DNA of 64,000 nt. Source: Eubacteriales bacterium. Its GTDB lineage: Bacteria > Bacillota > Clostridia > Christensenellales > CAG-138. How positions within the stretch are numbered: the stretch's first letter is position 1; each line of letters begins with the position of its first letter. The notes beneath the pieces were generated by a model, which searched no databases, had not been told where the DNA came from, and saw nothing but the letters and a program-made list of their open reading frames with translations. The position numbers were made by a program, and so were the translations under genes. The stretch spans positions 50,901 through 114,900 of the forward strand of contig JAQUTY010000007.1 in NCBI GenBank assembly GCA_028694155.1. The letters are read 5' to 3'. Shown here in pieces: positions 8,489 to 46,328 of the stretch.

Positions 8489-9661
8489 TCATATCTCCAG
8501 CTTGTCGAACAAGGCTTGCTGCCTGCGGATTTGCTCCCTTGTAAGTCCCTTATTTGCCTGTATTCTTGCCTTTGCTTTGTTCCTGCGTGAGAAAAAACGC
8601 TTTGGAATACGATGAAAATAGTAAAACGGCAAAAGAAACGGAACTCGTTTCAACGAGGGATAAAGCTCTTTTATGTATGCAGCAGGCTCGAACACGATGT
8701 GCCAATAATGCTTTAACTTCGAGCCGCCCGATCTGATGACGCTCGATGCTTCCCGATGCTCCGTCTTGCCATACAGTCCGCCCTCAAGAATGAACTGGGT
8801 CAGCTCCTCCTGCGTTTTAGTAAGCTCCGCACCTGTAAACCATGCGGCGGCAAGCGATTCCATATTTGAAACCAAAGTCATTATGCCCATTTGTCGGCAA
8901 TCGTTTTGGAACTTCTCTCGGTCATACTTACCAGCCATAACGGTCGAATAGACGTACACGTCCATCACGAACCTTGCTCCTACGCCGCCTGCCCACAGAT
9001 GCTGAAGCAGGTGGAGGAACATATATTCGTAGTATCGTTCGGGCGTCATCTCAAAAATATGCTTGTGTCCCGACCTTGGGTGCGTGTATGCCCAATCATC
9101 GTCCTTGTAGGTATGCTTTGTGCCACGAGGCAGCAGCGCAGGGTGAAACTCGACCTGCGTCATTGGTGCTTTGGAAAACAGGAGGTGATTACCTGCTTCC
9201 CTCCCATTGCAGCAATAGCCCAAATTTTCCATAACCTCAATTACCTTGCGTTCGTCTGAATCGTGATAGAGTATATCCAGATCGGACATGGAACGAAGGT
9301 AGGAGTGGGGATACAGAGCTTTTATAACCGGCCCCTTTAGCGTGAGCATATCAACTTGGGCTTGTTCCATCGCTTGCTCGATCGCCTCAAGCTCATGCAT
9401 GAACACCGCATCGTTTCTGATGCTGTCATACTTCGCTTTTCTTGTGAGCTTTCTTAGCTCCTGGGGCGCGCCCGACTGCTTTTCAAGCGGCACGGCAATC
9501 GAACCTAGCAGGTGATGCCTTGTTGCCAGCGCATATATCACTCCTGCATCAACGCCCTGTGGCGATGGCGCAGCAGTCTCATTGAGTGAGGCTGCTAGAA
9601 GTGCTATAAAGAATTTTTCGCTGGCGGTTATCATGCCATAATAATACCAAATACGAAACAT
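8489..9661 (-). CDS. uncharacterised nucleotidyltransferase family protein (NTP_transf_5-like)
   Basis: 390 aa. Core LKGPVIKALYPHSYLRSMSDLDILYHDSDERKVIEVMENLGY matches the LKG...Y...R..D-h-D-h-L pattern. It is a paralogue of the divergent neighbour. No SD is visible, so the start is uncertain (M1 or M10). Confidence 0.6.
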   Translation of the reverse strand: MFRIWYYYGMITASEKFFIALLAASLNETAAPSPQGVDAGVIYALATRHHLLGSIAVPLEKQSGAPQELRKLTRKAKYDSIRNDAVFMHELEAIEQAMEQAQVDMLTLKGPVIKALYPHSYLRSMSDLDILYHDSDERKVIEVMENLGYCCNGREAGNHLLFSKAPMTQVEFHPALLPRGTKHTYKDDDWAYTHPRSGHKHIFEMTPERYYEYMFLHLLQHLWAGGVGARFVMDVYVYSTVMAGKYDREKFQNDCRQMGIMTLVSNMESLAAAWFTGAELTKTQEELTQFILEGGLYGKTEHREASSVIRSGGSKLKHYWHIVFEPAAYIKELYPSLKRVPFLLPFYYFHRIPKRFFSRRNKAKARIQANKGLTREQIRRQQALFDKLEI

Positions 9662-9663
9662 CT

Positions 9664-9691
9664 TTGCAACCGAAACATTCTATGATATAAT
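9664..9691 (+). promoter_or_regulatory. sigma-A type promoter placed for a leaderless transcript of the 9698 gene
   Basis: TTGCAA, 16 nt, then TGaTATAAT (extended -10). The A of ATG 9698 is the 7th nt after the -10, and there is no SD. Confidence 0.45.
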
Positions 9692-9697
9692 GTTGTC

Positions 9698-10909
9698 ATG
9701 AATGCAGAATTCACTTATATGATGCATCTTGCAGGTTGCAGCGCACTTGGCGTTGAGCCTCTCCCCCCTGCTTCGATTGATTGGAACAGGCTATTTGCCT
9801 ACGCAAAGGAGCAGGGCGTTCCCGTGATGGTTGCACAGGTGCTGCTTGGCGCAAAAAATATTGAGTTGCCGGATAAGGTGAAGGACTATTGCGACTTTCT
9901 CTACTATCAGTTTGTTGCAAAAGAGGGCTATAGGCGGGAGCTTGTGCTGGATTTGCTCGGCGTATTTGAGAATGCCCACATATCCGTTGCGGTGCTCAAG
10001 GGCTACGCCGTTGCAAGCGTTTATGCTCAACCCGACTGTCGCATATCAGGCGATGTCGACCTTTTAGTTGCACCCAAGGACGAAAAAGCTGCCATCAAGC
10101 TGTTGGAAAAGCAGGGCTTTGAGGTTATGCAGCGTGCGGTTGCAAGCCACCACAGCGAAGCGCATCACCAGCAGATTGGCGTTGTCGAGCTGCACAATGC
10201 CCTGTATGACAGTGCGGCGGAAAACCTCTGGTTTTCGGGAGAATCGACCTTTGCTAAGCTGGAGGAGAACTACATCACCGTTGGCGGTATGCCCTCGCTT
10301 GGCTACACCGACCATCTGATTTTTCTCACTCTACACATGATGAAGCATTTTATCGGCGGTGGGCTTAGCCTCAGAATGCTGCTGGACGTTGGACTATACT
10401 ACTTTGTCAATCTTTGCAACATCAACACGGATCGTTATTGGGCGGTTCTGGATAAGCTGCGCTTTACAAAAGCTATTCGTGTCTTTTTCTCGATACTGGG
10501 GAAATACTGCGGCTTGAGCTTTGACCTTGAGGACGATGAGCTTATGGAAGCCGTTCTTTTGGACATGGAGCGTGGCGGCGCATTTTCAGTTAAAGACAAA
10601 AGTTTGGGCATTGTCAGCGCATGGGAGTATTCCAAATCATCTATCCCATCAGCGGAATATGATAAAATTAAAGCCGAAAAAATGAGAACCTACCGACTGC
10701 GCCGTTTTTTTCCGACCTATCGCACACTGATTGCCGAGTATCCCTTGCTCAAAAAATGCCCTCTCCTCTATCCCTTTGTCTGGACTTGGCGTATTGCGGC
10801 ACACACGATAAAAAAGCTGTTTGGACGCAAGCCATCTTCGTTGGCAACCGCACCCGGCTCAAATATTCGTGGTGAATTGTTTTCTGCCCTTGGCCTTGGA
10901 AATGATTGA
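9698..10909 (+). CDS. uncharacterised nucleotidyltransferase family protein (NTP_transf_5-like), second paralogue
   Basis: 403 aa. Core LKGYAVASVYAQPDCRISGDVDLLVAPKDEKAAIKLLEKQGF has the same architecture as the 8489..9661 product. Confidence 0.6.
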   Translation: MNAEFTYMMHLAGCSALGVEPLPPASIDWNRLFAYAKEQGVPVMVAQVLLGAKNIELPDKVKDYCDFLYYQFVAKEGYRRELVLDLLGVFENAHISVAVLKGYAVASVYAQPDCRISGDVDLLVAPKDEKAAIKLLEKQGFEVMQRAVASHHSEAHHQQIGVVELHNALYDSAAENLWFSGESTFAKLEENYITVGGMPSLGYTDHLIFLTLHMMKHFIGGGLSLRMLLDVGLYYFVNLCNINTDRYWAVLDKLRFTKAIRVFFSILGKYCGLSFDLEDDELMEAVLLDMERGGAFSVKDKSLGIVSAWEYSKSSIPSAEYDKIKAEKMRTYRLRRFFPTYRTLIAEYPLLKKCPLLYPFVWTWRIAAHTIKKLFGRKPSSLATAPGSNIRGELFSALGLGND

Positions 10910-10935
10910 CATAACACTTTTGAAGGGATAAAATT

Positions 10936-11454
10936 TTGTATATGAAATATCGAAATGAAAGAATTGTAAGAAATTTGTCTGACGGCAAGACTGTAAGCTG
11001 TTTTACGCCCTGTTTGTTTCGTCTGCTGCCCCAAAACTGCGGCACTCTGAAAACCGAACGGCACATACGGCTGCGCTTTCTCTATCGTTTCTTGGTCGGA
11101 TATCGCATCTACATGCTGCGAGACGGTGAGGATTTTCTTGCCTATGCAATGTTTCAAAAGGGCAAAATTGCACGCTATCCCTTCGTTGAAAAGGGAATGT
11201 ACATGATGGGGCCATACTTTGTCGATGAAGGACACAGAGGTCATGCTCTGGGAGGAACATTGTTGAGCGTTGCAGTTGAGGACGTTGGAGAGTTTAAGTC
11301 TATCTATGCGTGGATACTGGTTGACAACCAGCCGAGCCGTCGCACCGTAACAAAGGTTGGCTTTAGGCAATGCGGCTATCTCGACTCATCAAAGATTATC
11401 CGCAGCGTCACGCAAACGCCCACAGGCTGCCAGGTATGGAGATTGGATAAATAA
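10936..11454 (+). CDS. GNAT family N-acetyltransferase
   Basis: 172 aa. Acetyl-CoA-binding-type segment VDEGHRGHALGGTLLSVAV followed by WILVDNQPSRRTVTKVGF. TTG start at 10936 (GAAGGGA 7 nt upstream), or ATG at 10942. Confidence 0.65.
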   Translation: MYMKYRNERIVRNLSDGKTVSCFTPCLFRLLPQNCGTLKTERHIRLRFLYRFLVGYRIYMLRDGEDFLAYAMFQKGKIARYPFVEKGMYMMGPYFVDEGHRGHALGGTLLSVAVEDVGEFKSIYAWILVDNQPSRRTVTKVGFRQCGYLDSSKIIRSVTQTPTGCQVWRLDK

Positions 11455-11465
11455 CGGAGGGGAAT

Positions 11466-12539
11466 ATGGGAGCATCAACTGATAAAGCGTCCGGCAGGGT
11501 CAATTCTATTATGGGAGCATTGCGCTTTGCATATCGCAGGCACTATCTGCGCAAAGAGATACGGAGCATGGGCAGCTTTAAGTCCGCCCTGACAAGGGAG
11601 CAGCGTGCGAAGGCGAAGGCTTACTGGGGCAAGTATACAAAGCACTATTCACCGTTGTGGCATGAGCTTATAGCTGCACGAACGGGCAACTTTGACGTTC
11701 ATTATATTCCGGCAGACGTCATGTTTACCGATATTGAGGGCTACCTCAATGACTGGGCAAGCGCACACGGGCTTGACAATAAAAATAACTACACGATGTA
11801 TTTTCCCGAAGTTCGTCATCCTAAGACGGCTTTCAAGAAAATGCACGGGTTGTTTCATGATGCAGATTTTAACATTATCTCAAAGGAGCGTGCAATACAG
11901 AATTGCATAGAAATGGGCGATGTGATTTTTAAGCTTGCCATTGAATCCGGCAAGGGCTTGGGAATTAGCTTTTGGCGTTCAACGGACGGCGAAGCTGCTC
12001 TGAGGCAACTTGTTGACGGGCTTTGCGATGATGTCAATGCACAGGAGTTTGTCAAGCAACACCCTGCGCTTGCAAGCATCAATCCTGTATCGGTCAACAT
12101 CATCAGGGTGATTACACTTGCTTCTTCGGACGGAATCAGGCGGATTGCCTCTTATCTTCAGCTTGGACGTGATGGCACAAGGCAAAGTCAGATAGCAACC
12201 GGTGGCGTTGCCGTAAGCATAAAATCAGACGGCACGCTCTACAAGTATGCCGTTGACACCGATTATTTTCGCACAACTGAGCATCCAAACGGGCTTGTCT
12301 ATGAGGGGTTTGAGGTGCCGGGCTACCACAAAGTAGTCGATACGGCTATTGCTCTTCACAAAAAGATTGGGAACTTTCGGATTATTTCTTGGGACTTTGC
12401 CGTTGGCGAAAACGGCGAACCGATATTTATCGAAATGAATCTCAAGAATGGTGGAATAATGTTCCATCAAATCAGCAGCGGCCCTCTGTTTGGTGATCGT
12501 ACCGATGAGCTGTTGGACGAGGTGCTTGGGAAAAAATAA
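11466..12539 (+). CDS. sugar-transfer-associated ATP-grasp protein
   Basis: 357 aa. Resembles the 'sugar-transfer associated ATP-grasp' family (..NIIRVITL...GGVAVSI...ISWDFAVGENGEPIFIEMNLKNGG). GGAGGGG RBS. Confidence 0.6.
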   Translation: MGASTDKASGRVNSIMGALRFAYRRHYLRKEIRSMGSFKSALTREQRAKAKAYWGKYTKHYSPLWHELIAARTGNFDVHYIPADVMFTDIEGYLNDWASAHGLDNKNNYTMYFPEVRHPKTAFKKMHGLFHDADFNIISKERAIQNCIEMGDVIFKLAIESGKGLGISFWRSTDGEAALRQLVDGLCDDVNAQEFVKQHPALASINPVSVNIIRVITLASSDGIRRIASYLQLGRDGTRQSQIATGGVAVSIKSDGTLYKYAVDTDYFRTTEHPNGLVYEGFEVPGYHKVVDTAIALHKKIGNFRIISWDFAVGENGEPIFIEMNLKNGGIMFHQISSGPLFGDRTDELLDEVLGKK

Positions 12540-12555
12540 TGCGATGACCAACTTG

Positions 12556-13455
12556 TCATCGGATCATGCGCATTATCCCCTCTGTAAATGAGATGTGTGG
12601 GGTAAAGCCTGTGTCACGCACTAGGCTGGTGGTATCGAATGCCCAGTCGGGCAGGAAGATTACATTGGATGTAATGCTGCCGTAGGCAATTTTTACATTG
12701 GGATTGACTATCTCATTGAGCTGCTCCAAATATTCTCTAAGTGGCTTGGGATTGCCTGAGCCAATGATATAGTTTTCGCCGTCTATTCCCTTTTCACCAA
12801 TCAAATACAGGGCGTTGGCAATGTCACTGATGTGAACAAAGTCGTATAGCTGCCTGCCCTCGCTGGTTGCAGGAGATTCATTATTTTGCAGTGCACGCAC
12901 AAGAGTATTGATGAGCCTGCCCGAACGCTCGCCCTCACCATATGCGTTGGTGATGATGGGCCACAGAAACTCGACCCCATTTGCGCCTGCAAGCGCTTTG
13001 CCCATAAAATGTGCGGCAATCTTCGACGATTTGTACATCAGCCCCAGATTTGTTATGGGTTTATTCAAGCCCATTTCTACCATTGCTTCAGTCTCGTGCA
13101 AGCTGCCTGCGCCCAAAAATCTTTTGATGCCCATGCCTTTTGCCGCAAGTATCGCACTTAACGTTGCCCCAGTGTTTCTCATCTGCACCTGAGGATCTTT
13201 CGCATCTGCATTTGACACGCCCTGCCACGCCAAATGATAGAATATATCAATATCTCTATCCTTTACCAGCGTGGGCAACATCTCAAATTCGCTTAGATTG
13301 CAGGTGACAGTCCTCACGCCCCAATTCTCCATCAGCGAGATGTTCGGGTCGCCCTCCATCGTGATGGCAATGACCTCTATCCCCTCGTCCAGCAGCTTTC
13401 TTGTGAGGTTCCGACCGATAAAACCGGTTGCGCCGGAAATGATCGCTTTTTTCAT
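12556..13455 (-). CDS. NAD-dependent epimerase/dehydratase (extended SDR), probable CDP-4-keto-6-deoxyhexose reductase
   Basis: The ATG at 13455 overlaps the upstream stop (ATGA) and begins MKKAIISGATGFIGRN (Rossmann GxxGxxG). The 31-aa extension in the track is discarded. It is the last gene of the CDP-sugar sub-cluster. Confidence 0.7.
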   Translation of the reverse strand: MKKAIISGATGFIGRNLTRKLLDEGIEVIAITMEGDPNISLMENWGVRTVTCNLSEFEMLPTLVKDRDIDIFYHLAWQGVSNADAKDPQVQMRNTGATLSAILAAKGMGIKRFLGAGSLHETEAMVEMGLNKPITNLGLMYKSSKIAAHFMGKALAGANGVEFLWPIITNAYGEGERSGRLINTLVRALQNNESPATSEGRQLYDFVHISDIANALYLIGEKGIDGENYIIGSGNPKPLREYLEQLNEIVNPNVKIAYGSITSNVIFLPDWAFDTTSLVRDTGFTPHISFTEGIMRMIR

Positions 13456-14015
13456 AGCTTTATACCTTTCTGTTGACAATAGTCCTGCAATGATGGCAGC
13501 GACCTGTCCTTCTCTGACAGAATCGGCTTTGTTCCATTCAAGGGCCACGGAATGTTCAACGCAGGGTCGTCATATCTAATGCCGCCGCAAGCAGCGGGGA
13601 CATATCTTCCCGAACACTGATACGAAAAAACAGTCCTGTCCTCAAGTGCCAAAAAGCCGTGCGCAAAGCCTTCGGGGATAAACAGTCCCAAATTATCGTC
13701 GGCTCTCATCAACTCGACATGATACTTGCCAAAGGTCTTGGAGTTTTCTCTTAAATCGAGTGCAACATCGAACAAGGTGCCACAAATTACATGTATCAGT
13801 TTTGCCTGCGATTGTTCGGTCTGATAGTGCAGCCCCCTAATCACGCCCTTGTCCGAATAAATATCGCTTGTCTCGGTGAATTGGCAGTTGATTCCATTAT
13901 CCAAAAATGCCGACCTCTCGTAACACTTTTTATACAGCCCACGCTCATCAGTAAAGGTGTGTGGCTTAACAAGAACAAGTCCGTCTATCTCCGTATCAAT
14001 AAAAGTAAATGGCAT
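13452..14015 (-). CDS. RmlC-like cupin, sugar-nucleotide 3,5-epimerase
   Basis: 187 aa. The motifs F.DERG..KK, GLHYQ and P.GFAHGF match the dTDP-4-dehydrorhamnose 3,5-epimerase family. It is embedded in the CDP-glucose genes. Confidence 0.8.
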   Translation of the reverse strand: MPFTFIDTEIDGLVLVKPHTFTDERGLYKKCYERSAFLDNGINCQFTETSDIYSDKGVIRGLHYQTEQSQAKLIHVICGTLFDVALDLRENSKTFGKYHVELMRADDNLGLFIPEGFAHGFLALEDRTVFSYQCSGRYVPAACGGIRYDDPALNIPWPLNGTKPILSEKDRSLPSLQDYCQQKGIKL

Positions 14016-14034
14016 CTGGGCTCCTTATCTGCTG

Positions 14035-15081
14035 CTATTGTCCTAAGTACTCACGAATTTGTTTGTCCATCATGCCCTCGATGTCGCCACCGTAGGCGTA
14101 GCACTTTGCCCACTCGACCGTCTTTTCTATTGCCGTTTGCAGGTTCCATACCGGGTGCCAACCGAATGTGTCCTTGAGCTTTTGACAGTCCAGTTTCAAA
14201 AAGTTTGCCTCATGCGGCCCTCCATCGTGGCGGTTGATCCATGTCATTCCCTCGCCCCACGAGTCAATGAACAGCTCAACAAGGTTGCCTGTGGTCAGGC
14301 AGTCGCAATCGTCCGGCCCGACGTTGTACCAGCCTGCATATTTTCCGTCCTCATACTGTCTCTTGGCAATCATCAGGTAGGCAAACAGCGGTTCAAGCAC
14401 ATGCTGATAGGGACGAGTTGAATGGGGGTTGCGCACGATAATTGGCTCGTGCTTCATTGCTGCTCGAATGCAATCGGGGATAATTCTGTCGTTTGCAAAG
14501 TCGCCTCCGCCAATGACATTTCCTGCTCGAGCTGTCGATATTGCAACGCTGCCATCGGCAAAAAACGAGTTTTTATATGAATGGGTCACAAGCTCAGAGC
14601 AGGATTTGCTGTTGGAATATGGGTCGAAGCCGTCCAACTGCTCATCTTCGCTGTACCCCTTCTCTCTTTCACGGTTGAGATAGACCTTATCGGTAGTCAC
14701 GTTCAAAAATGATTTGACCGTATCGCACTTTCTTACACACTCAAGAATATTGACCGTTCCCATCACGTTGGTCTGATAGGTGTAGCGTGGATACTTGTAG
14801 CTGTCACGAACTATCGGTTGGGCAGCAAGATGCAGCACTATTTCGGGTTTTGATGCAGACAATGCCGACCACAACGCACCCTCGTCACGAATATCGCCTA
14901 TTACTGAGGTCATGCCACGCTCCACATCGGCAAGCTCGAACAGGCTCGGCTGGGTGTTTGGTTCAAGCGAATAGCCCGTGACGATAGCCCCTGCGTTTTT
15001 GAGAATATGACAAAGCCACGAGCCCTTAAAACCCGTGTGCCCAGTAACAAAGACACGCTTGCCTTTGAAAAACTCCATCAT
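14035..15081 (-). CDS. rfbG: CDP-glucose 4,6-dehydratase
   Basis: About 348 aa. FKGKRVFVTGHTGFKGSWL and the length and blocks are typical of RfbG. The start is chosen at an ATG 8 nt after GGAGG (15081); the track start of 15117 lies inside rfbF. Confidence 0.85.
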   Translation of the reverse strand: MMEFFKGKRVFVTGHTGFKGSWLCHILKNAGAIVTGYSLEPNTQPSLFELADVERGMTSVIGDIRDEGALWSALSASKPEIVLHLAAQPIVRDSYKYPRYTYQTNVMGTVNILECVRKCDTVKSFLNVTTDKVYLNREREKGYSEDEQLDGFDPYSNSKSCSELVTHSYKNSFFADGSVAISTARAGNVIGGGDFANDRIIPDCIRAAMKHEPIIVRNPHSTRPYQHVLEPLFAYLMIAKRQYEDGKYAGWYNVGPDDCDCLTTGNLVELFIDSWGEGMTWINRHDGGPHEANFLKLDCQKLKDTFGWHPVWNLQTAIEKTVEWAKCYAYGGDIEGMMDKQIREYLGQ

Positions 15082-30044: not shown

Positions 30045-30053
30045 GTATGCTCC

Positions 30054-30962
30054 CTACCTTTCCTTCTTTGTCTTATGCTTAATCCACAGATACCAGAGCA
30101 ACCCCATAGGCAACGCTGCTATGACATAACCTTTGCGCCTTAGCTCCTTGCAAAACAGCTTACGCTTTGCAATCATGCACTCTGAAACGTAGTGCATTGC
30201 GGTGATGAAGTAAGTCCGCTTTCTGCTCCCGTCCATAGACAGTGTGAATATCCTAAAATCAGCAAACGAATTGGGTCGTTTGAAATAGTTTTTGTATTTA
30301 TTGTTTGATACTCCATCGGTCTGATAATTGACCACTACCGTGGGCTCGTTTAGAATGAGCATATCAAAATGTTGCGCTATCTGCAAAAACTGCCGTGATG
30401 CATTCAATGATGTCTCGCCCGGATATTTTTTAGCAGGCGTAGTCAGCTCATAGCATTTTGTACGATACAGCATGGCAATATCCGTTGCAGTTCTCCCATA
30501 CAATCCCGCAACCGTCTTTCTGAAATTGATGGTTTTCAGCTCGTTGGGAAAGCTACCGCCAATGATTCTTCCATCGGCGTAACAATCAAGGCTCACTATG
30601 CCTGCCACAGCTTCACTTCCGTACTGCTTCCAAAATGAGAGCAGCCGTTCGACCGCATCATCCAATAAATAGTCGTCCGAGTCAACGCACATACACAGCT
30701 CTGTTTCAATATGCTTTATTGCTTCGACATATGCAGTTTGAAGTCCGCCATTTTCCTTATAGAAATACTCAATGCGAAAGCCGCAATCTTCATTTTGCCA
30801 TTGACTTACAACGTTCCTTGTATCATCGGTCGATCCATCATCAATGACCATCCAAATGAAATCTTTGCAGGTTTGACGCTTTAATGCCTCGAACGCCGGC
30901 AAAAGCAGCTTTGCCCTGTTGAATGTTGGAGTGAAGATGGTAAGGCGAATATTACTTTCCAT
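30054..30962 (-). CDS. glycosyltransferase family 2
   Basis: 302 aa. LTIFTPTFNRAKLLLPAFEALKRQT...IDDGSTDDT...VDSDD. Confidence 0.85.
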   Translation of the reverse strand: MESNIRLTIFTPTFNRAKLLLPAFEALKRQTCKDFIWMVIDDGSTDDTRNVVSQWQNEDCGFRIEYFYKENGGLQTAYVEAIKHIETELCMCVDSDDYLLDDAVERLLSFWKQYGSEAVAGIVSLDCYADGRIIGGSFPNELKTINFRKTVAGLYGRTATDIAMLYRTKCYELTTPAKKYPGETSLNASRQFLQIAQHFDMLILNEPTVVVNYQTDGVSNNKYKNYFKRPNSFADFRIFTLSMDGSRKRTYFITAMHYVSECMIAKRKLFCKELRRKGYVIAALPMGLLWYLWIKHKTKKER

Positions 30963-31923
30963 CTTCTCTCACAATCTTGGGGCTGTTTAGGTCTATCCAA
31001 TCGCCCATTTTCCTGTCCCATTCCTCAGGTTGAATGTCGTTGCAGCCACCGCCATGATAAAAAGTTATCTCGCCAAAGTAGACCTTGCCGTCCATGTTGT
31101 AAAGATCCACTCTGCAATGTGCAAAAGGCTTGCTTAAAATTCTTGCTGCCTCGACCATTATATCAAAGTTCTCGGGTTTTTTCACCTTATATGGTGCATT
31201 GGCTCTGGTTTCATGCACCGGTAGAAGATTGAAATCCATATCATAAATGTTTCTTGGATAGGTATTGTCGTAGCTTCCATCGTCCTTCAAAAGCTCAAGG
31301 TCGAGAAACAGCAGCTTGGGCTCGCCGTCAAAGCACATGAATTTGTAATCCAGTGGGAGCTTGCCTGCCTTATCCCGTATCACCTTGTCCGCAATGATGC
31401 AGGGCTTGATGTTCTTATAGTTCCATTCGCGTGAAATAAGGTAATACTTCTGTTTTAGGGCATACCTAAGCTTCTTAATAATTGCTTTTTTGTTGATCGG
31501 TGCGTTGGGCTTTATCAAAAAGTTCTCGCCCGAACCATGGTTGCACTTGAGTATGACCTCCTCTTTGAAAGCGGAAAAGTCAATATCCTCGGGTCTTTGA
31601 TAGACTGCCACCTCAGGAATGAGTATATCCTCAAGTCCGCACTCCTTAACATAGTCCCTTACCAAATATTTGTCTGAACAACGTGTCAAAAGACTGTCAC
31701 GATTATTGAGCTTCAGCCACCAAAGCTTCTCGTCAAAATATACAGGGGAATCCAAATGCAGGGTCTTTCCTGTATACGTCTTGTAGAACCATTTGGCGTA
31801 CTTCTCATCGCTCCGCAGCGACATGAGCTTGACAAACGTGTTCCGAATACGCTGAAACATCATGTATCCAAATTCGCTCTTGCTCGCCCAGTTTTTTAGC
31901 TTGTCCTTTATCCTTACCAGCAC
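30952..31923 (-). CDS. TupA-like ATP-grasp amidoligase family protein (copy 2)
   Basis: 323 aa. Motifs: EKLWWLKL..RD, KCNHGSGEN, DYKFMCFDGEPKL, CRVDLY..DGKVYFGEITFYHGGG. It is a paralogue of 27943..28908. Confidence 0.75.
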   Translation of the reverse strand: MLVRIKDKLKNWASKSEFGYMMFQRIRNTFVKLMSLRSDEKYAKWFYKTYTGKTLHLDSPVYFDEKLWWLKLNNRDSLLTRCSDKYLVRDYVKECGLEDILIPEVAVYQRPEDIDFSAFKEEVILKCNHGSGENFLIKPNAPINKKAIIKKLRYALKQKYYLISREWNYKNIKPCIIADKVIRDKAGKLPLDYKFMCFDGEPKLLFLDLELLKDDGSYDNTYPRNIYDMDFNLLPVHETRANAPYKVKKPENFDIMVEAARILSKPFAHCRVDLYNMDGKVYFGEITFYHGGGCNDIQPEEWDRKMGDWIDLNSPKIVREDGK

Positions 31924-32898
31924 TTACAGATTCTCCTTGTACCACTCGATTGCCAGTTTTATTCCATCTTCAAAGCTATAATCGGGGTCGTAGCCTAAAA
32001 GACGTTTTGCCTTTGAAATATCGGCGTTGCTGTGCTTGATGTCGCCCGCACGGTCGGGGCCGAATTTTGGTTCGATGTCCTTGTTCAACGCCTGTGTTAA
32101 GCCGTGATATATGTCTATAAGATACTCTCTGCCACCGTATGCAATATTGTATGCCTGACCTGCCGCTTCCTTGGGTGCGAGCATTCCCTTTAGGTTCGCT
32201 TCGACCACATTTTCTACATATGTGAAGTCTCTGCTCTGCTTGCCATCGCCATTGATAACGGGCTGCTCACCGTGCATGAGCTGCTTGATAAACTTGGGAA
32301 TTACCGCTGCATATGCGCCATCGGGATCCTGTCTTCTGCCAAACACGTTGAAATATCTGAACCCGATCGTTTCCAGTCCATAGTGCATATAATACATCTT
32401 GCCATATTCTTCATCGCAGCGTTTTGTAAGAGCATAGGGCGAAAGAAGGTTGCCCTCCCTGCCCTCGGTCTTTGGAAGAATCGGCTCATCGCCATAGACG
32501 CTGGAGCTTGAAGCATAGCAAAAACGCTTGACGCCATTCTGCCTTGCTGCCTCCATCATGTTTAGCGTGCCGCGAATGTTGATTTCCTCATACAAAAGGG
32601 GCATGGCAATGCTCCTAGGGACAGAACCCCACGCCGCCTGATGCGAAACATAATCGACACCCTTACAAGCAGCCATACAGGTATCAAGGCTGCGAATGTC
32701 GCCCTCGATTAGCGTAAAATTCGGATTTGCCTTGAACGGCTCTACATTCTCGCGCTTGCCCGTCGAAAAATCGTCAAGGCAACGCACTTTGTATCCCATC
32801 TGGAGCAACGACTCAACGATGTTCGACCCGATGAACCCTGCGCCACCTGTGACCAGAAAAACCGAATCCTTGGGGAAAATCAGATGTTTATATCCCAT
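31924..32898 (-). CDS. TviC/WbpP-like NAD-dependent UDP-GlcNAc(A) 4-epimerase
   Basis: 324 aa. Long collinear similarity to my recollection of Salmonella TviC: VTGGAGFIGSN, DDFSTGKRENV, HQAAWGSVPRS, SSSSVYGD, LSPYALTK, RYFNVFGRRQDPDGAYAAVIPKF, NGDG..SRDFTYVENV, GD..HS.ADISKA. Confidence 0.75.
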   Translation of the reverse strand: MGYKHLIFPKDSVFLVTGGAGFIGSNIVESLLQMGYKVRCLDDFSTGKRENVEPFKANPNFTLIEGDIRSLDTCMAACKGVDYVSHQAAWGSVPRSIAMPLLYEEINIRGTLNMMEAARQNGVKRFCYASSSSVYGDEPILPKTEGREGNLLSPYALTKRCDEEYGKMYYMHYGLETIGFRYFNVFGRRQDPDGAYAAVIPKFIKQLMHGEQPVINGDGKQSRDFTYVENVVEANLKGMLAPKEAAGQAYNIAYGGREYLIDIYHGLTQALNKDIEPKFGPDRAGDIKHSNADISKAKRLLGYDPDYSFEDGIKLAIEWYKENL

Positions 32899-34217
32899 TA
32901 CAGCCTCCAGTAGTAGTAGCCTGCGTCCTCAAATTCCTTGCGACTTAGCAGACCCTTTATGTCTAGCAGCACCCTTTTATCATCCTTGAACAGCTCGTCC
33001 ATCTGCGCTCTTGTGATGGAGGTAAAGTCCGTATGCGCCACCGCCAGAATGACTGCGTCCATATTCCTGATTTCGTCCATCGATACAAACTCCACCCCAT
33101 ATTCACGCTTCGCCTCGGCAGCATCTGCCTGCGGATCGGTGATGAGTGGCTCGATGCCGTATTCTTTGAGTTCATTGACTATATCAATTATCTTCGTATT
33201 TCTCGTGTCGGGACAGTTCTCCTTGAATGTGAAGCCCAAAATGGCAACTCTTGCATGCTGAACAGGCTTATCCGACTTGATGAGCTGCTTTACAAGGTTC
33301 TCGGCAACATACTTGCCCATGTCGTCATTGATGCGTCTGCCTGCCAAAATGATCTGACTGTGATACCCCAGCTCCTCCGCCTTATATGTAAGATAGTAGG
33401 GATCAACGCCAATGCAATGTCCCCCAACAAGACCGGGAGCAAATTTAAGAAAGTTCCATTTTGTCCCTGCTGCTTCAAGCACCGCCTTTGTATCTATGCC
33501 CATCTTATTAAAGATGACCGAAAGTTCATTCATAAATGCTATGTTTATATCACGTTGGCTATTCTCAATGACCTTTGCGGCCTCGGCGACCTTTATGCTC
33601 TGTGCTCTGTGTACTCCTGCCTCGACCACCAGCTCATACACCTTGGCAACCGTATCGAGCGTCTCATCGTCCATACCGCTGACAATCTTTGTGATAGTCT
33701 CCAATCTGTGTACCTTATCGCCCGGATTGATGCGCTCGGGACTATATCCTATCTTGAAATCGACTCCGCACCTAAGTCCACTCTCACGTTCCAAAATGGG
33801 AACGCAAATGTCCTCAGTTACTCCCGGATAGACCGTGCTTTCGAACACAACGATGCTGCCCTTACAGAGATTTCTTCCAAGGATTGTGCTTGCCCCCTCA
33901 ACGGGACTTAAATCCGGAGTATGATCCGGGTTCACGGGTGTGGGAACTGCTACAATGTGAAATTTGGCTTCTCTCAGCTTTGTTTCATCCGAGGTGAAGT
34001 CAACCTTGCACGCTGAAATAGCATCGTTGCCAACCTCTTTGGTTGGATCTACTCCGCTTCTGTACATGTCGATTTTATGCTTGTTGAGATCAAAGCCTAC
34101 AACATTCAGTTTCTTGGAAAATGCCACCGCTATGGGCATTCCAACATAGCCCAAACCCACCAGTGACAGCTTCTCCTCATGGTTAATCAGTTTTGCGTAA
34201 AGATCATTCATACTCAT
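32898..34217 (-). CDS. TviB/WbpO-like nucleotide-sugar 6-dehydrogenase (UDP-GlcNAc to UDP-GlcNAcA)
   Basis: 439 aa. Blocks shared with TviB as I recall it: GLGYVG.P.AV.F, VGFD.N, VPTP, ESTVYPG.TE, GYSPERINPGDK.HRL, SIKVAEAAKVIEN.QRD.NIA, PGLVGGHCIGVDPYYL, ILAGRR.ND.MG, ILGFTFKENCPD.RNT.IID. Confidence 0.8.
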   Translation of the reverse strand: MSMNDLYAKLINHEEKLSLVGLGYVGMPIAVAFSKKLNVVGFDLNKHKIDMYRSGVDPTKEVGNDAISACKVDFTSDETKLREAKFHIVAVPTPVNPDHTPDLSPVEGASTILGRNLCKGSIVVFESTVYPGVTEDICVPILERESGLRCGVDFKIGYSPERINPGDKVHRLETITKIVSGMDDETLDTVAKVYELVVEAGVHRAQSIKVAEAAKVIENSQRDINIAFMNELSVIFNKMGIDTKAVLEAAGTKWNFLKFAPGLVGGHCIGVDPYYLTYKAEELGYHSQIILAGRRINDDMGKYVAENLVKQLIKSDKPVQHARVAILGFTFKENCPDTRNTKIIDIVNELKEYGIEPLITDPQADAAEAKREYGVEFVSMDEIRNMDAVILAVAHTDFTSITRAQMDELFKDDKRVLLDIKGLLSRKEFEDAGYYYWRL

Positions 34218-35311
34218 ACTCCCATTATTCTTCGCATCTGCGCGTTGACTTTATTTACATCATATTTTTCTTCTGCGATGGTGCGACTTCTCTGCCCCAT
34301 TCGCTTGACCTCATCGCCATGTTCAATGCACCAAAGCATCTTTTCCTCTAGTGTCTTGCTGTCCCCAACTGGTATCAAAAAGCCATTATCGCCGTCCTTA
34401 ACGGTCTCCCTGCAACCGGGTGCATCTGTTGTAATTATTGCCCTGCCAGTCGCCATCGCCTCAAGCACGGTGCGTGGAGTGCCCTCATGATATGACGGCA
34501 GCACGAACACTGAACATTCCCTGTAAAACCTATCTACATCATCACGCTTACCATGGTACTCAACAACATTGCTGCACTCGTCCATGTCCTCAATCTTTAT
34601 GGCGGTAGGATTGGAGTCCAGCGGGCCGACAACGGAAAACTGTGCTTGGGGATATTTTTCCTTGGTCGCCTTGGCTGCTGCGATAAACTCTGCAATGCCC
34701 TTGTCAAAAAGCAACCTTCCGACAAAAAGAAATGATGCTTTATTCGGCATCGGCGTGAGTGCAAACTTATCAAGATTCACACCTGACCCATTGATGATAC
34801 TCGTTTTCTCCCTGCTGAGCAGCCTTTTGTTTACGAATACCTCCAGATCGTCACAATTCTGGAACATCACTCCATCGGATTTTTTTAACGCCATTGTGTA
34901 AAGCATTTCCATCACAAGGCGCACCAGACGGTTTTTAAGTCCGCCCTCCGAGCGAAACACCGAGCCTAGACCATTGATGGTGCAATAGCCCTTACAACCT
35001 TTAGGCTTTGCCATCAAGCCGTATATCACTGCCTTAGCACCGCTGAAGGCATACACCATGTCTGGCTTTTCTTCCCTGAAAATTCTCTTGCAATCCCTAT
35101 ATGTCTTTCTGTCGGACAGGGGATTGCTCCCCGTTCGCTGCATGAAGATGGTACGCATCTGTACTGCGCCGCACAAAAAAAACTTTGTTGCGTCCCAACT
35201 GTCGGGTGTGAGAACCAGCAGCTCGTGTCCCAAATCCAACAGGCCGCACATGAACTCCCGTCTCGATTTATACACGTCCTCTGCCGATACTGCAACTATG
35301 GCTATCTTCAT
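34214..35311 (-). CDS. glycosyltransferase family 4 (GT-B)
   Basis: 365 aa. The C-terminal segment VLPSYHEGTPRTVLEAMATGRAIITTD.PGCRE.V is the E-x7-E region of GT4/GT1. Confidence 0.85.
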   Translation of the reverse strand: MKIAIVAVSAEDVYKSRREFMCGLLDLGHELLVLTPDSWDATKFFLCGAVQMRTIFMQRTGSNPLSDRKTYRDCKRIFREEKPDMVYAFSGAKAVIYGLMAKPKGCKGYCTINGLGSVFRSEGGLKNRLVRLVMEMLYTMALKKSDGVMFQNCDDLEVFVNKRLLSREKTSIINGSGVNLDKFALTPMPNKASFLFVGRLLFDKGIAEFIAAAKATKEKYPQAQFSVVGPLDSNPTAIKIEDMDECSNVVEYHGKRDDVDRFYRECSVFVLPSYHEGTPRTVLEAMATGRAIITTDAPGCRETVKDGDNGFLIPVGDSKTLEEKMLWCIEHGDEVKRMGQRSRTIAEEKYDVNKVNAQMRRIMGV

Positions 35312-36000
35312 TGTTCGCCCCTTTTCAAGACGCCTGTAACGGTCTTTATCATGGTCGATATATCGTTGATTAGACCAAACGAGCGAAGCTGTTCGAGATT
35401 GTATTTCATCTTTTGGGGCAGAACCTGCTCGATATAAGCACGTTCGGGATCCTCGGCGGCACCCAAAATTTTATCCTCGTCCTTGTAACGTATGCTTGCA
35501 ACAGAAGTAATTCCCGCACTCTGCAAAAGAGTAGCTTTCATCTGATCGGTATAGTGATCAACGTATCTTACCACCTCGGGACGAGTGCCCACAAAGCTCA
35601 TCTGTCCAATCAGAACATTGAATAGTTGCGGCAGTTCATCAAGCCTATACTTGCGCAAAAATCTTCCGATTCCCGTGATGCGAGCATCCTCGCCGACCGT
35701 GACCTGTGTGCCCAGCTTCTCGGCGTTCTTGACCATTGTGCGAAACTTTACTATTCTAAATTGCTTTCCGTATCGGGTAACTCGCACCTGTCGAAAGAAC
35801 ACTCCTCCTTTTGAGCCCAGTCCCACTAAAGCGGCAAGAACCAAAAACAGAGGTGAAAACACAATCAGCATCAATGCGGACATTACTATGTCGAAACCAC
35901 GCTTAACAAAGCGTTGAACAGGCTTGCCCTTCAATATGACATAATATGGACGAACCTCCTCGGTTCGCAATTCTTGTGGCAGCCTATCCCAGCTTCTCAT
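35308..36000 (-). CDS. small (PglC/EpsL-type) undecaprenyl-phosphate sugar phosphotransferase; priming enzyme
   Basis: 230 aa. KRGFDIVMSALMLIVFSPLFL...FRQ.R.....F...KFRTM...DELPQLFNVL.G.MS.VGTRPE. Confidence 0.88.
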   Translation of the reverse strand: MRSWDRLPQELRTEEVRPYYVILKGKPVQRFVKRGFDIVMSALMLIVFSPLFLVLAALVGLGSKGGVFFRQVRVTRYGKQFRIVKFRTMVKNAEKLGTQVTVGEDARITGIGRFLRKYRLDELPQLFNVLIGQMSFVGTRPEVVRYVDHYTDQMKATLLQSAGITSVASIRYKDEDKILGAAEDPERAYIEQVLPQKMKYNLEQLRSFGLINDISTMIKTVTGVLKRGEQ

Positions 36001-37199
36001 AGACAGTCTTTAAGTGTATCAATAACATACTGCACGTCCTCATCGGATAGTTTTGTGTGCAGCGGTAGCGTGATCTCGTTTTGATACTGGCAAAACGCAT
36101 TCGGATAATCGTCCATCGAATATCCCATATTCTTGTAAGCGGTCATCATTGGCAGGGGCTTGTAATGGACGTTGGTCGCAACTCCACGCTCCGCCATTCG
36201 TGTTATCAGCGCATTTCTATCCGTTTCAGTTGCATTTGGTATCCGCAACAGGTAGAGATGCCCGCTGGACTGAACGTTATGGGAATAATGCTCGAGCGCA
36301 CTCAATCCCAAGCTCTTTGCAGCCTCATCATATCTTTCGATAATGCTTCGTCTTCTTGCCAAAATATCCGTATAACGGTCGAGCTGTATCAGCCCTATTG
36401 CCGCCATAATATCAGTCATGTTGCATTTGTATGCAGGATAAATAATGTCATATTCCCATGCGCCAATTTGATTTTTCTTGAACGCATCCTTGTTCTGTCC
36501 GTGCAGCGAAAAGAGCATGAATTGATTGTACAACCACTCGTTGTCCAATCCCTCACGGGGCAGCCATGTTGCTGCACCGCCCTCGCCCGTTGTCAAATTC
36601 TTCACAGCATGAAACGAGAAACAGGTGAAATCGGCAGCCTCGCCGCTGTTTTTGCCGTCTCTTCTTGCCCCAAACCCGTGCGCACTATCGGCTATGACAA
36701 TCACTCGGTCGAACAGCCTTTGAAGCTCCGTTGAGGGTGAATACAGTTCCTTTTTGCTTTCGATAGCAGCAAGGATGCGTTTATAATCGCACATCCTTCC
36801 CCCGATATCAACAGGCATTATCGCCTTGGTGTTTTTGGTTATCTTGCCTGCAATACTATCATAGTCGAGTTCAAATGAATCCTTCAAAACATCGATCATG
36901 ATTGGAGTTGCTCCAACGTGACAAACAACAGAGGCGGTAGCAGTATATGTGTATGCTGGAACAATGACCTCGTCGCCATCTTTGATGCCCAGTATTCTCA
37001 AGCACAGCTCCATCGCTGCGGTAGCCGAATTTAGGCACACAACCTTTGGTGCGCCGATCCATTCCGCCAACCGTTGCTCAAACAACTTAGTCCGCTTGCC
37101 AGTAGTAATCCAACCCGAACGCAAGGCTTCTGCAACTTCGTTGCACTCTGCCTCTCCTATATCGGGCGGTGAGAAGGGAATTGTTCTCATATTCTGCAT
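35997..37199 (-). CDS. DegT/EpsN/PglE-type UDP-4-keto-6-deoxy-HexNAc aminotransferase
   Basis: 400 aa. FSPPDIGEAE...V.EALRSGWITTG......FE..LA...G, and FSFHAVKNLT (PLP lysine). It is the first gene of the long minus-strand array. Confidence 0.85.
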   Translation of the reverse strand: MQNMRTIPFSPPDIGEAECNEVAEALRSGWITTGKRTKLFEQRLAEWIGAPKVVCLNSATAAMELCLRILGIKDGDEVIVPAYTYTATASVVCHVGATPIMIDVLKDSFELDYDSIAGKITKNTKAIMPVDIGGRMCDYKRILAAIESKKELYSPSTELQRLFDRVIVIADSAHGFGARRDGKNSGEAADFTCFSFHAVKNLTTGEGGAATWLPREGLDNEWLYNQFMLFSLHGQNKDAFKKNQIGAWEYDIIYPAYKCNMTDIMAAIGLIQLDRYTDILARRRSIIERYDEAAKSLGLSALEHYSHNVQSSGHLYLLRIPNATETDRNALITRMAERGVATNVHYKPLPMMTAYKNMGYSMDDYPNAFCQYQNEITLPLHTKLSDEDVQYVIDTLKDCL

Positions 37200-37352
37200 A
37201 ACCTCATAATTTATTCATGGCTTCGCCATTGGCACTCCCCTTGGGAATGTCATTATCCGACAAAGATAAGCGATAATCGACCGCAAAACCGCACTGACAG
37301 TGTGTGAATCCGCCAACTACCTATAACTAGCCATAATGCTCCAGTTCATATC

Positions 37353-37381
37353 ATTATACAACTATATATAGACTCTTGCAA
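37353..37381 (-). promoter_or_regulatory. sigma-A promoter for the minus-strand glycan operon
   Basis: Minus strand reads TTGCAA, 17 nt, TATAAT. This predicts a leader of about 147 nt before ATG 37199. It sits back-to-back with the thiT promoter. Confidence 0.55.
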
Positions 37382-37403
37382 GAAGTATTTGGTCGTAATT
37401 GTG

Positions 37404-37432
37404 TTGACAAATTCGTTATTGTGGGGTACAAT
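37404..37432 (+). promoter_or_regulatory. sigma-A promoter of the TPP riboswitch / thiT unit
   Basis: TTGACA (37404-37409), 17 nt, TACAAT (37427-37432). Confidence 0.65.
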
Positions 37433-37436
37433 CTGT

Positions 37437-37556: not shown

Positions 37557-37576
37557 ATTTGTAGGAGGTACTGATT

Positions 37577-46321: not shown

Positions 46322-46328
46322 GGCTTAT

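Follow-up and report, generated by a model that had tools for sequence, protein, structure and literature searches.

A 28-gene locus of an uncultured Eubacteriales bacterium as a probable serotype-variable, Wzx/Wzy-dependent heteropolysaccharide cluster with a candidate lactyl-ether synthase

What does a bacterium make from 28 closely spaced glycan genes that draw on uridine diphosphate (UDP), thymidine diphosphate (dTDP) and cytidine diphosphate (CDP) sugars: one polymer or several, and a polymer of which class? We addressed this question for an uncultured spore-forming Eubacteriales bacterium (GTDB lineage Bacteria; Bacillota; Clostridia; Christensenellales; CAG-138), using a stretch of 64,000 nucleotides (nt) from GenBank assembly GCA_028694155.1 (contig JAQUTY010000007.1, positions 50,901 to 114,900), which we refer to as the window. 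The table of open reading frames (ORFs) and our own translation confirmed a locus of 28 ORFs in 28.9 kb (window positions 8489 to 37381), as an earlier preliminary description had it. Of these, 24 follow one another without a break on the minus strand from 37199 down to 12556, and the left end holds three plus-strand ORFs (9698-10909, 10936-11454, and 11466-12539) and a divergent minus-strand ORF (8489-9661). We conclude, with a probability of about 0.72, that the locus is a serotype-variable gene cluster for a Wzx/Wzy-dependent surface heteropolysaccharide. The protein families were assigned directly from profile matches, and we infer from there the substrates and the order of the steps.

The conclusion is carried by the core machinery and by its behavior in related loci. 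The locus has exactly one phosphoglycosyltransferase (PGT; g2 in the list below), one Wzx-type flippase (g20), one EpsG-type Wzy polymerase (g8), and five other glycosyltransferases (GTs; g3, g7, g11, g12, and g19). The PGT and the five GTs together predict a repeat unit of about six residues, and the set as a whole fits a single hexasaccharide repeat made by Wzx and Wzy, in line with the heteropolymer of about six sugars proposed earlier. The features are listed here from right to left, with family labels checked by Pfam and NCBIfam profile searches.

37353-37381, minus strand: sigma-70-like promoter (TTGCAA-17-TATAAT) upstream of g1, a consensus match only
35997-37199, minus strand: g1, DegT-family sugar aminotransferase of the Spr1654 (UDP-AATGal) type (PF01041, 320 bits; PDB 6ewj)
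35308-36000, minus strand: g2, small monotopic polyprenyl-phosphate phosphoglycosyltransferase, priming (PF02397, 184.6 bits, cutoff 27)
34214-35311, minus strand: g3, GT4 glycosyltransferase (PF00534, PF13692)
32898-34217 (alternative start 34211), minus strand: g4, UDP-N-acetylhexosamine 6-dehydrogenase, TviB/WbpO-like (three UDPG_MGDP_dh domains)
31924-32898, minus strand: g5, C4-epimerase of UDP-N-acetylglucosamine (UDP-GlcNAc) or its uronic acid, WbpP/WbgU/TviC-like (PDB 1sb8, WbpP, 7e-96)
30952-31923, minus strand: g6, TupA-like ATP-grasp amidoligase (PF14305, 160.7 bits, cutoff 25)
30054-30962, minus strand: g7, GT2 glycosyltransferase (PF00535)
28947-30044, minus strand: g8, EpsG-family Wzy-type polymerase (PF14897, 153.6 bits, cutoff 30.1; about nine hydrophobic segments)
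27943-28938 (likely start 28908), minus strand: g9, TupA-like ATP-grasp amidoligase (PF14305, 165 bits, cutoff 25)
26817-27941, minus strand: g10, CapA/PGA_cap protein (MslH family, metallophosphatase fold), cytoplasmic (PF09587, 174.3 bits)
25835-26836, minus strand: g11, WaaS/CpsH-family glycosyltransferase (NF053598, 128.9 bits, cutoff 60)
24858-25838, minus strand: g12, GT2 glycosyltransferase (PF00535, 122.9 bits)
22511-24868, minus strand: g13, fusion of PS_pyruv_trans, two [4Fe-4S] clusters and FrhB_FdhB_C, 785 amino acids (Pfam, AlphaFold2, Foldseek)
21633-22514, minus strand: g14, RmlA (TIGR01207, 461 bits, cutoff 360.65)
21070-21633, minus strand: g15, RmlC (TIGR01221, 218.3 bits, cutoff 155.75)
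20054-21073, minus strand: g16, RmlB (TIGR01181, 491.6 bits, cutoff 365.1)
18860-20002 (likely start 19990), minus strand: g17, DegT-family aminotransferase of the dTDP branch (PF01041, 258.7 bits)
18347-18859, minus strand: g18, PseH-like GNAT N-acetyltransferase (TIGR03585, 95.0 bits, cutoff 93.1)
17398-18354, minus strand: g19, GT2 glycosyltransferase (PF00535)
15848-17398, minus strand: g20, Wzx-type flippase (homologues with PF01943; at least 10 hydrophobic segments)
15078-15851, minus strand: g21, glucose-1-phosphate cytidylyltransferase (TIGR02623, 407 bits, cutoff 300.25)
14035-15117 (likely start 15081), minus strand: g22, CDP-glucose 4,6-dehydratase (TIGR02622, 429.3 bits, cutoff 278.45)
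13452-14015, minus strand: g23, RmlC-family 3,5-epimerase of the CDP branch (PF00908, 191 bits)
12556-13548 (likely start 13455, 299 amino acids), minus strand: g24, short-chain dehydrogenase/reductase-type C4-reductase (PF01370)
12542-12561, no strand: hairpin with T-run between the convergent g24 and g25, likely terminator of the array
11466-12539, plus strand: g25, "sugar-transfer associated" ATP-grasp ligase (ATPgrasp_ST; PF14397, 100 bits)
10936-11454, plus strand: g26, GNAT acyltransferase (PF00583)
9698-10909, plus strand: g27, NTP_transf_5 nucleotidyltransferase-fold protein (PF14907, 119 bits)
8489-9661 (likely start 9634), minus strand: g28, NTP_transf_5 protein (PF14907, 135.8 bits)

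Nearly all labels of the preliminary description were borne out by the profiles. Its list named 27 of the 28 genes and left out the CapA/PGA_cap gene g10, and its "possible GT", g11, is a glycosyltransferase that can now be placed in the WaaS/CpsH family. The revised starts of g9 and g24 come from independent assemblies (a 321-amino-acid gene call for g9, 299-amino-acid calls for g24). The priming enzyme g2 (230 amino acids) has a single N-terminal hydrophobic segment and is related to the catalytic domain of WbaP and to PglC. The flippase label of g20 (516 amino acids) had to be reached indirectly: the protein has no Pfam match even at an expectation value (E) of 0.1, and several homologues that are 49 to 54% identical to it (E about 1e-160) carry PF01943, so that its Wzx membership holds by transitive homology. 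Most members of this subfamily are without a Pfam match and two homologues of g20 are named "sugar isomerase" by NCBI; annotation of the subfamily in public databases is probably poor.

Relatives of the locus were retrieved through homologues of g20 and g13. The sister loci L110 and L032 have housekeeping flanks that are 74 to 89% identical, lie at the same site beside HSP20 and hut genes, and keep the same backbone; the whole CDP branch is absent from them, and the equivalent of g19 is found only as degenerate fragments. L110 has an extra GNAT gene inside the operon, between the TviC and TupA genes, that is 43% identical to g26. L111/L030 keeps g19 (71%), RfbF (87%), and RfbG (82%) and has an RfbH-like dehydrase in place of the epimerase and an alpha/beta-hydrolase plus a D-Ala-D-Ala-ligase-like ATP-grasp protein in place of g9 and g10. 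An orthologue of g25 (58% identical) stands in operon orientation at the start of the retrieved region in L111/L112, and L034 has RmlABCD without the aminotransferase and GNAT. Judged by gene content, these module swaps at the same chromosomal site around one PGT/Wzx/Wzy core are serotype-like variation. The pattern supports one locus making one polymer, and it supports counting the left-end genes in the system, as had been proposed, since orthologues of g26 and g25 lie inside the main operon of sister loci.

Two further observations touch these variable parts. In L111 (5118-8043), the TupA ligase gene is followed by the alpha/beta-hydrolase and D-Ala-D-Ala-ligase-like genes, with an Acetyltransf_9 protein encoded upstream, a gene set that hints at a peptide-type side chain. 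In L115 (11477-12549; SRR24204752), the orthologue of g25 is split into ORFs of 294 and 41 amino acids, likely by a frameshift or as a pseudogene, and decoration may therefore vary within the population.

The 24 minus-strand genes most likely form one transcription unit, read from the promoter near 37353-37381 as far as the hairpin near 12550. If each ORF is given its longest possible form, all junctions in the array overlap or span at most 51 nt, as described before; if the starts are taken instead from gene calls made independently on other assemblies, 15 of the 23 junctions overlap, five span 0 to 19 nt, and the remaining three span 27, 38, and 63 nt. The promoter's 10/12 match is not significant by itself (33 such matches in 15 kb versus 24.9 ± 4.7 in shuffles) and is made plausible by its place in the sole real intergenic region upstream of g1. 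Splitting of the array by internal promoters or terminators, which the preliminary description had named as incompatible with its view, was not seen: promoter-like and terminator-like matches showed no excess over shuffles, and none fell inside an intergenic gap of the array.

Both boundaries can be placed. Back-to-back with the array promoter stands a near-consensus promoter on the plus strand (37404-37432, TTGACA-17-TACAAT), followed by a thiamine pyrophosphate (TPP) riboswitch (37434-37522, plus strand; 65.8 bits against an Rfam gathering score of 54.3) that serves a ThiT/YuaJ-type thiamine transporter gene. This unit, which extends over 37404-38104, lies upstream of g1 and thereby fixes the right boundary. 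The TPP riboswitch was the only Rfam match at gathering thresholds in the whole window, and a permissive scan of the leader region (37150-37450) found no EAR-like or other known antitermination element. On the left, the boundary is formed by an HSP20 gene and the hut operon, and the 8 kb or so further left of the window hold housekeeping genes only. Sporulation genes and the dcw cluster are found in the flanks; a transfer RNA (tRNA) search found none, hence no tRNA-linked island signature. The G+C content falls to 0.42 to 0.45 over g6 to g11 (about 25000-31000) compared to the window average of 0.48, which is the usual signature of the serotype-specific core in polysaccharide loci.

Independently assembled contigs from three other sequencing runs keep the gene order from g13 to hut (L115 and L116) or from g13 to g25 (L117), and a further partial assembly spans the CDP branch to hut. 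A chimeric metagenome-assembled genome (MAG) was ruled out by this contiguity of the array in other samples.

How is the polymer started? The product of g1 aligns with Spr1654 (PDB 6ewj) over 393 residues without gaps (E 1.9e-155, 55% identity), and the gene for the Bac_transf protein g2 shares 4 nt with g1. Spr1654 is predicted to be the aminotransferase that makes UDP-2-acetamido-4-amino-2,4,6-trideoxygalactose (UDP-AATGal), the first sugar of pneumococcal teichoic acid (PMC5936713). A wcfR orthologue with conserved genes of the polysaccharide A (PSA) operon nearby, e.g., wcfS, has been the criterion in a screen for putative zwitterionic polysaccharides (PMC10167101), and g1 with g2 marks our locus as a putative AATGal-initiated polysaccharide locus. 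We found no UDP-GlcNAc 4,6-dehydratase of the PglF/UngD2/Spr0092 type in the window, an absence that the preliminary description had pointed out. This is no anomaly: the presumed dehydratase partner Spr0092 has a locus tag separate from that of spr1654 (PMC5936713), and the Bacteroides fragilis PSA operon holds the aminotransferase WcfR and the priming enzyme WcfS with the dehydratase UngD2 outside (PMC13063421). Because the dehydratase is unlinked in both systems, its absence here is the usual state of the class. In keeping with a free 4-amino group, the locus has no N-acetyltransferase that would modify it; genes for carboxylates (g4 and g13) are present, and the amidoligases may neutralize the uronates.

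The locus resembles PSA, the Streptococcus pneumoniae type 1 capsule, and spr1654/spr1655 in having a DegT aminotransferase directly beside a small priming transferase at the locus end, the dehydratase elsewhere, no 4-amino N-acetyltransferase, Wzx and Wzy, and genes for acidic groups (pyruvate-type, uronic acid) within the locus. The likeness to WcfR, WcfS, and Spr1655 is one of gene type and position, sequence identity being known for Spr1654 only. In contrast to those loci, this one is larger (six transferases versus four in PSA), has extra dTDP and CDP deoxy-sugar branches and three ATP-grasp ligases, and lacks UpxY/UpxZ regulators.

The same head gene raises the alternative that survives best, which is that the product is not a capsule or exopolysaccharide but a teichoic-acid-like secondary glycopolymer, anchored to the wall by an LCP ligase from another part of the genome. 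The pneumococcal teichoic-acid pathway is Wzx/Wzy-like in character. Pfam and NCBIfam found no LCP/CpsA (LytR), Wzz/CpsC, BY-kinase (CpsD), or Polysacc_synt_2-type 4,6-dehydratase in the locus, as had been noted before, and none among the called genes in the rest of the window or in the 8 kb to its left; within the window, the flanking ORFs 409-2058, 42868-43512, 43533-44081, and 62214-62684 have no Pfam match and could hide one. Nor did any scanned ORF of the window or of those 8 kb qualify as a chain-length regulator or co-polymerase (Wzz, CpsC/CpsD). While the gathering of a priming transferase, GTs, Wzx, Wzy, and nucleotide-sugar genes in one co-directional operon is that of Gram-positive cps/eps operons (CpsA-D/EpsA-D), the LCP protein CpsA, CpsC, CpsD, and the phosphatase CpsB of those operons were not found in the window. 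The absence of CpsA-D-type genes and the 55% identity of g1 to Spr1654 both favor a wall polymer, as does the fact that pneumococcal teichoic acid is made by repeat-unit polymerization and a flippase (PMC5936713). On the other hand, the locus has no polyol-phosphate genes (TarI/J, LicD, CDP-ribitol or CDP-glycerol) and no LCP gene nearby, and an AATGal-type start is just as characteristic of capsules, those of B. fragilis (PSA) and S. pneumoniae type 1 among them (PMC10167101). We regard a wall polymer as plausible but not favored; it bears only on the fate of the polymer and is compatible with a Wzx/Wzy-dependent heteropolysaccharide.

Four nucleotide-sugar branches had been claimed for the locus, together with many non-sugar decorations, and both claims are supported. 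Beyond the AATGal-type branch, g4 and g5 would supply UDP-N-acetylgalactosaminuronic acid (UDP-GalNAcA) or a related 2-acetamido-uronic acid. They had been called TviB/TviC-like, and these are indeed their best NCBIfam matches, but at 492.9 bits (cutoff 592) and 295.8 bits (cutoff 760) neither reaches the equivalog cutoff. The NDP-sugar dehydrogenase subfamily model is satisfied by g4, and g5 is clearly WbpP/WbgU-like; by their profiles, the two are of the TviB/TviC enzyme classes (6-dehydrogenase and 4-epimerase) but no Vi orthologues.

For the dTDP branch, g14 to g18 are predicted to make a dTDP-4-acetamido-4,6-dideoxyhexose. RmlA, RmlB, and RmlC score above their NCBIfam equivalog cutoffs, and g18 barely reaches the PseH model; the aminotransferase g17 is 30% identical to g1. 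No RmlD 4-reductase is encoded in the locus, and the aminotransferase and GNAT genes fill the slot that RmlD has in L034. Three related loci without RmlD have nevertheless retained RmlC, whose divergence there is at background level. Because it is kept in this way, g17 may act on the RmlC product, and the dTDP amino sugar is possibly L-configured. A natural variant, L117, has an rmlD-containing fragment that interrupts the aminotransferase gene of this branch. In this contig (L117:2722-5156; SRR29243445), the aminotransferase is shortened to 328 amino acids and is followed by an rmlA fragment, an RmlD-like gene, and the GNAT gene, an arrangement that suggests recombination switching the branch towards L-rhamnose.

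In the CDP branch, g21 and g22 score above equivalog cutoffs, g23 and g24 match PF00908 and PF01370, respectively, and there is no RfbH. The epimerase g23 is the second of its family in the locus (195 bits against the RmlC cutoff of 156; 39% identical to g15). Capsule assembly in Campylobacter jejuni depends on an ABC transporter, unlike the Wzx/Wzy-dependent assembly here. The sugar route, however, is matched: HS41.17-21 of C. jejuni, for CDP-6-deoxy-L-altrose and CDP-D-fucose, comprises the same four enzyme types. In the HS:41 strain, the sequence of cytidylyltransferase, 4,6-dehydratase, 3,5-epimerase, and C4-reductase has been shown biochemically to yield CDP-6-deoxy-L-altropyranose (PMC12369002). 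By analogy, g21 to g24 would make a CDP-6-deoxy-L-hexose. The locus lacks the pyranose-furanose mutase of C. jejuni, and a pyranose is therefore expected. Because g19 co-varies with the CDP branch across sister loci, it is probably the CDP-sugar transferase.

The uronic-acid genes stand close to two amidoligase genes, g6 and g9, whose products are 37% identical. In C. jejuni, the TupA-like ATP-grasp C-terminal domain of Cj1438 joins serinol phosphate or ethanolamine phosphate to the C6 carboxylate of glucuronate through an amide bond, and Cj1435 afterwards strips the phosphate from the product (PMC11800379); for other members of the family, the predicted activity is the attachment of amino acids to surface polysaccharides (PMC13419641). 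From this domain and the co-located genes g4 and g5, it appears that g6 and g9 would amidate uronic-acid carboxylates with an amino acid or an amino alcohol. The arrangement is like that for the C. jejuni HS:2 glucuronamide in that a TupA-like ATP-grasp is encoded beside uronic-acid supply genes and has a hydrolase-fold partner. It differs in that the ligases here stand alone and are not C-terminal domains of GT2 proteins, and in that the partner, paired by position, is a CapA/MslH-family protein, where C. jejuni has the phosphatase Cj1435.

This partner is g10, whose gene abuts g9. TupA and PGA_cap genes also adjoin each other in L110 and about six more groups of metagenome loci, so that the pairing recurs in some six to eight separate groups overall; one of these loci, L037, has TviB and, further on, TupA, PGA_cap, GT2, pyruvyltransferase (PvT)-FrhB, and EpsG genes in the same order as the window. 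A sequence search of PDB with g9 gave no match, and that with g10 gave a weak match to MslH only. MslH, a characterized member of the PGA_cap family, epimerizes a C-terminal residue, and its discoverers proposed that CapA is an epimerase (PMC8179263). We therefore propose that g10 might process the product of g9, either by epimerization of an amide-linked L-amino acid to the D form or by dephosphorylation in the sense of Cj1435.

The most interesting protein is g13, which had been called a pyruvyl transferase. That label holds for the N-terminal third (PS_pyruv_trans, PF04230, 93.6 bits); the rest of its 785 amino acids consists of two canonical CxxCxxCxxxC motifs, each for a [4Fe-4S] cluster, and an FrhB_FdhB_C module. 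The AlphaFold2 model had a predicted local distance difference test (pLDDT) score of 91 and a predicted template-modeling (pTM) score of 0.88. Foldseek matched its C-terminal half to FrhB-family subunits, F420-dependent sulfite reductase (Fsr), and plant 7-hydroxymethyl-chlorophyll a reductase (HCAR), with E from 1e-15 to 1e-9, and its N-terminal half to GT-B enzymes including the yeast pyruvyltransferase Pvg1p; a sequence search of PDB returned only ferredoxin-like stretches. Among 665 matches, at least 120 were full-length fusions of 713 to 835 amino acids, one of them annotated in Butyrivibrio fibrisolvens, and the closest relative among GTDB representatives was 44% identical. In 52 aligned fusions, the eight ferredoxin cysteines, C572, C595, C663, C666, and the PvT motifs were all invariant.

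The two halves are fused or encoded within about 2 kb of each other in 23 of 31 distinct related loci across phyla (genome and metagenome loci, excluding L001, the window's own copy). Clostridia and a Melainabacteria MAG have the transferase first, Bacteroidota and Proteobacteria MAGs the reductase. A g12-like GT2 gene is usually found directly upstream of PvT(-FrhB), as in L003, L006, L015, L017, L022, L027, L028, L030, L034, and L037, which makes g12 a conserved partner of g13.

Why would a pyruvyltransferase carry a reductase? Formation of a pyruvate ketal needs no redox step, and the reductase half thus calls for another product. In peptidoglycan synthesis, MurA transfers enolpyruvate from phosphoenolpyruvate (PEP) to a hydroxyl of UDP-GlcNAc, and MurB, a flavoprotein, then reduces it to a lactyl ether. 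We propose that g13 is a polysaccharide lactyl-ether synthase with a MurA/MurB-like mechanism, a role to which we give an even chance. Its transferase half would move enolpyruvate from PEP to a hydroxyl of the lipid-linked repeat unit, on the sugar that g12 adds, and its FrhB-type flavin/iron-sulfur half would reduce the enol ether to an O-(1-carboxyethyl) lactyl ether. The chemistry proposed is identical to that of MurA and MurB, but the likeness is one of mechanism and not of family, since g13 combines a GT-B-like PS_pyruv_trans domain with an FrhB-type module, as opposed to the MurA fold and the FAD-binding fold of MurB.

Support for this role comes from Klebsiella. Among 77 listed K-antigen structures, only K22, K37, and K66 have O-lactyl groups, and none of the three has a pyruvate ketal (PMC6856556, Table 1). 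A "nitroreductase" homology group occurs in K22 and K37 only, beside a pyruvyl transferase confined to those types, and a "coenzyme F420 hydrogenase" occurs in K66 only, beside a pyruvyltransferase confined to K66; these adjacencies are read from consecutive entries in the table of homology groups (PMC4616057, supplement). The link from gene pair to lactyl group is our own, joining two papers neither of which draws it, and a full-text literature search found no paper linking such pairs to lactyl ethers, although prior publication is possible. Like g13, the Klebsiella pairs (wcqF with HG203, "coenzyme F420 hydrogenase," in K66; wclZ with HG127, "nitroreductase," in K22/K37) combine a pyruvyltransferase-family gene with a flavin-type reductase in a Wzx/Wzy locus. 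They differ in being two separate genes, compared here by annotation only, whereas g13 is one protein with two extra [4Fe-4S] clusters.

A second alternative is that g13 is an ordinary ketal-forming pyruvyltransferase and that the FrhB-type module fused to it serves an unrelated or a regulatory redox purpose. The members of PF04230 characterized so far, e.g., WcfO in PSA, do form pyruvate ketals (PMC13063421), and our literature search found no paper stating a lactyl-ether role. With the ketal-forming CsaB, WcaK, and WcfO, g13 shares the PS_pyruv_trans domain, which in g13 has a Pvg1p-related fold, but in contrast to a stand-alone, redox-independent enzyme it is fused to two [4Fe-4S] clusters and an FrhB-type module. 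Ketal formation without redox chemistry does not account for a reductase half that, in different phyla and in either gene order, is fused to the transferase or encoded beside it, with its cluster cysteines invariant, nor for three K types that have pyruvyltransferase and reductase together with O-lactyl and no pyruvate. An ordinary ketal-forming enzyme is thus possible but rather unlikely.

With these assignments, the steps of a heteropolysaccharide pathway can be put in order. UDP-4-keto-6-deoxy-GlcNAc from the unlinked dehydratase would be aminated by g1 to a UDP-AATGal-type sugar, which g2 would load onto undecaprenyl phosphate. The primed sugar would be lengthened by g3, g7, g11, g12, and g19 to roughly a hexasaccharide, with UDP-GalNAcA, dTDP-4-acetamido-4,6-dideoxyhexose, CDP-6-deoxy-L-hexose, and housekeeping UDP-sugars as the predicted donors. 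Decoration would take place on the cytoplasmic face before export, with g25 and g26 attaching acyl or aminoacyl groups in addition to those of the amidoligases and g13. Finally, g20 would flip the repeat unit and g8 would polymerize it.

It is important to note the points that count against this reconstruction. No 4,6-dehydratase, LCP ligase, or chain-length regulator was found in the 64-kb window, and a capsule, an exopolysaccharide, and a wall-anchored polymer are hence all conceivable. The TviB and TviC scores of g4 and g5 are under the equivalog cutoffs, and RmlC might just work with an unlinked RmlD in the making of L-rhamnose. The two options for g10, epimerase and phosphatase, are equally tentative. 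The proposed lactyl role of g13 rests on a correlation over three serotypes in another phylum and on chemical analogy, and the FrhB-type partner is found in K66 only among the three Klebsiella types.

Two other readings were rejected. The array could encode two or more separate glycans, for instance, a UDP-sugar polymer from the promoter-proximal genes and a dTDP/CDP-sugar polymer from the distal ones. The number of genes (24), the four nucleotide-sugar branches, and the dispensability of the CDP branch in L110 would be in keeping with this; however, there is a single priming transferase, flippase, and polymerase, no ABC transporter or second initiating enzyme, and the whole backbone stays together in sister loci with no intergenic breaks, which makes separate products improbable. 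An S-layer protein O-glycosylation (slg) cluster, left as an option in the preliminary description, is weaker still and very improbable: such clusters in Bacillales often contain dTDP- and rare deoxy-sugar branches and no capsule export genes were found here, but the locus and flanks have no Pfam match for an O-oligosaccharyltransferase (Wzy_C/WsaB-like), the 28 genes and scanned flanks include no ABC transporter, S-layer, or SLH gene, and the locus has Wzx and Wzy instead.

At the left edge, g27 and g28 keep the G...DxD nucleotidyltransferase motif, with G-x-DxD invariant in an alignment with the nine homologues retrieved. L110, L115, and L116 also have the pair at the edge of the locus, L034 has one copy, and more distant homologues occur near PvT-FrhB genes in other taxa. 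The nearest folds to the AlphaFold2 model of g28 (pLDDT, 87) were ANT(2'')-Ia, LnuA, TM1012, and, weakly, FKRP, all with E above 1e-3, and a literature search for PF14907 returned one passing mention. The divergent genes appear to share a palindromic -35 hexamer, TTGCAA, at 9664-9669 (region 9632-9700). On the g27 side (plus strand), a TATAAT box with its last base at 9691 precedes the ATG at 9698; on the g28 side (minus strand), a TATTAT box with its last base at 9641 precedes an in-frame ATG at 9634, which is Met10 of the listed ORF, where the homologues of g28 start. Position 9634 is thus probably the start of g28, and the promoter-to-ATG spacing makes both genes look leaderless.

Elsewhere in the window, the ORF at 409-2058 (minus strand; 549 amino acids) has no Pfam match at E 0.01 and is kept beside the hut genes in other assemblies. 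At 44213-47354 (minus strand), between LemA/TPM genes and an MntP-like gene and unlinked to the glycan locus, stand three tandem paralogues, each with a C-terminal NAGPA (phosphodiester glycosidase) domain, which could have a part in processing a wall glycan linked by phosphodiesters.

That glycan loci are large and mosaic is to be expected in gut Clostridia. The locus as a whole, from an uncultured gut-type lineage of this class, belongs among Wzx/Wzy clusters, a placement that helps its annotation and is unsurprising. Its putative AATGal class includes zwitterionic immunomodulatory polysaccharides such as B. fragilis PSA, and in such loci an unlinked dehydratase should not count as a gap. 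The pair of TupA ligase and CapA/MslH protein is a candidate two-step module that would attach an amide-linked substituent to uronic acids and then epimerize or dephosphorylate it. The most interesting part of the locus is the fusion protein g13, which together with the Klebsiella data provides a gene-level hypothesis for the origin of lactyl (1-carboxyethyl) ethers in polysaccharides. Should it hold, the homologous fusions that gut Clostridia have by the hundreds would be markers of lactyl-ether glycans and not of pyruvylated ones, and the split pairs of Bacteroidota and Proteobacteria, as well as those of Klebsiella K66 and K22/K37, would be further makers of lactyl ethers.

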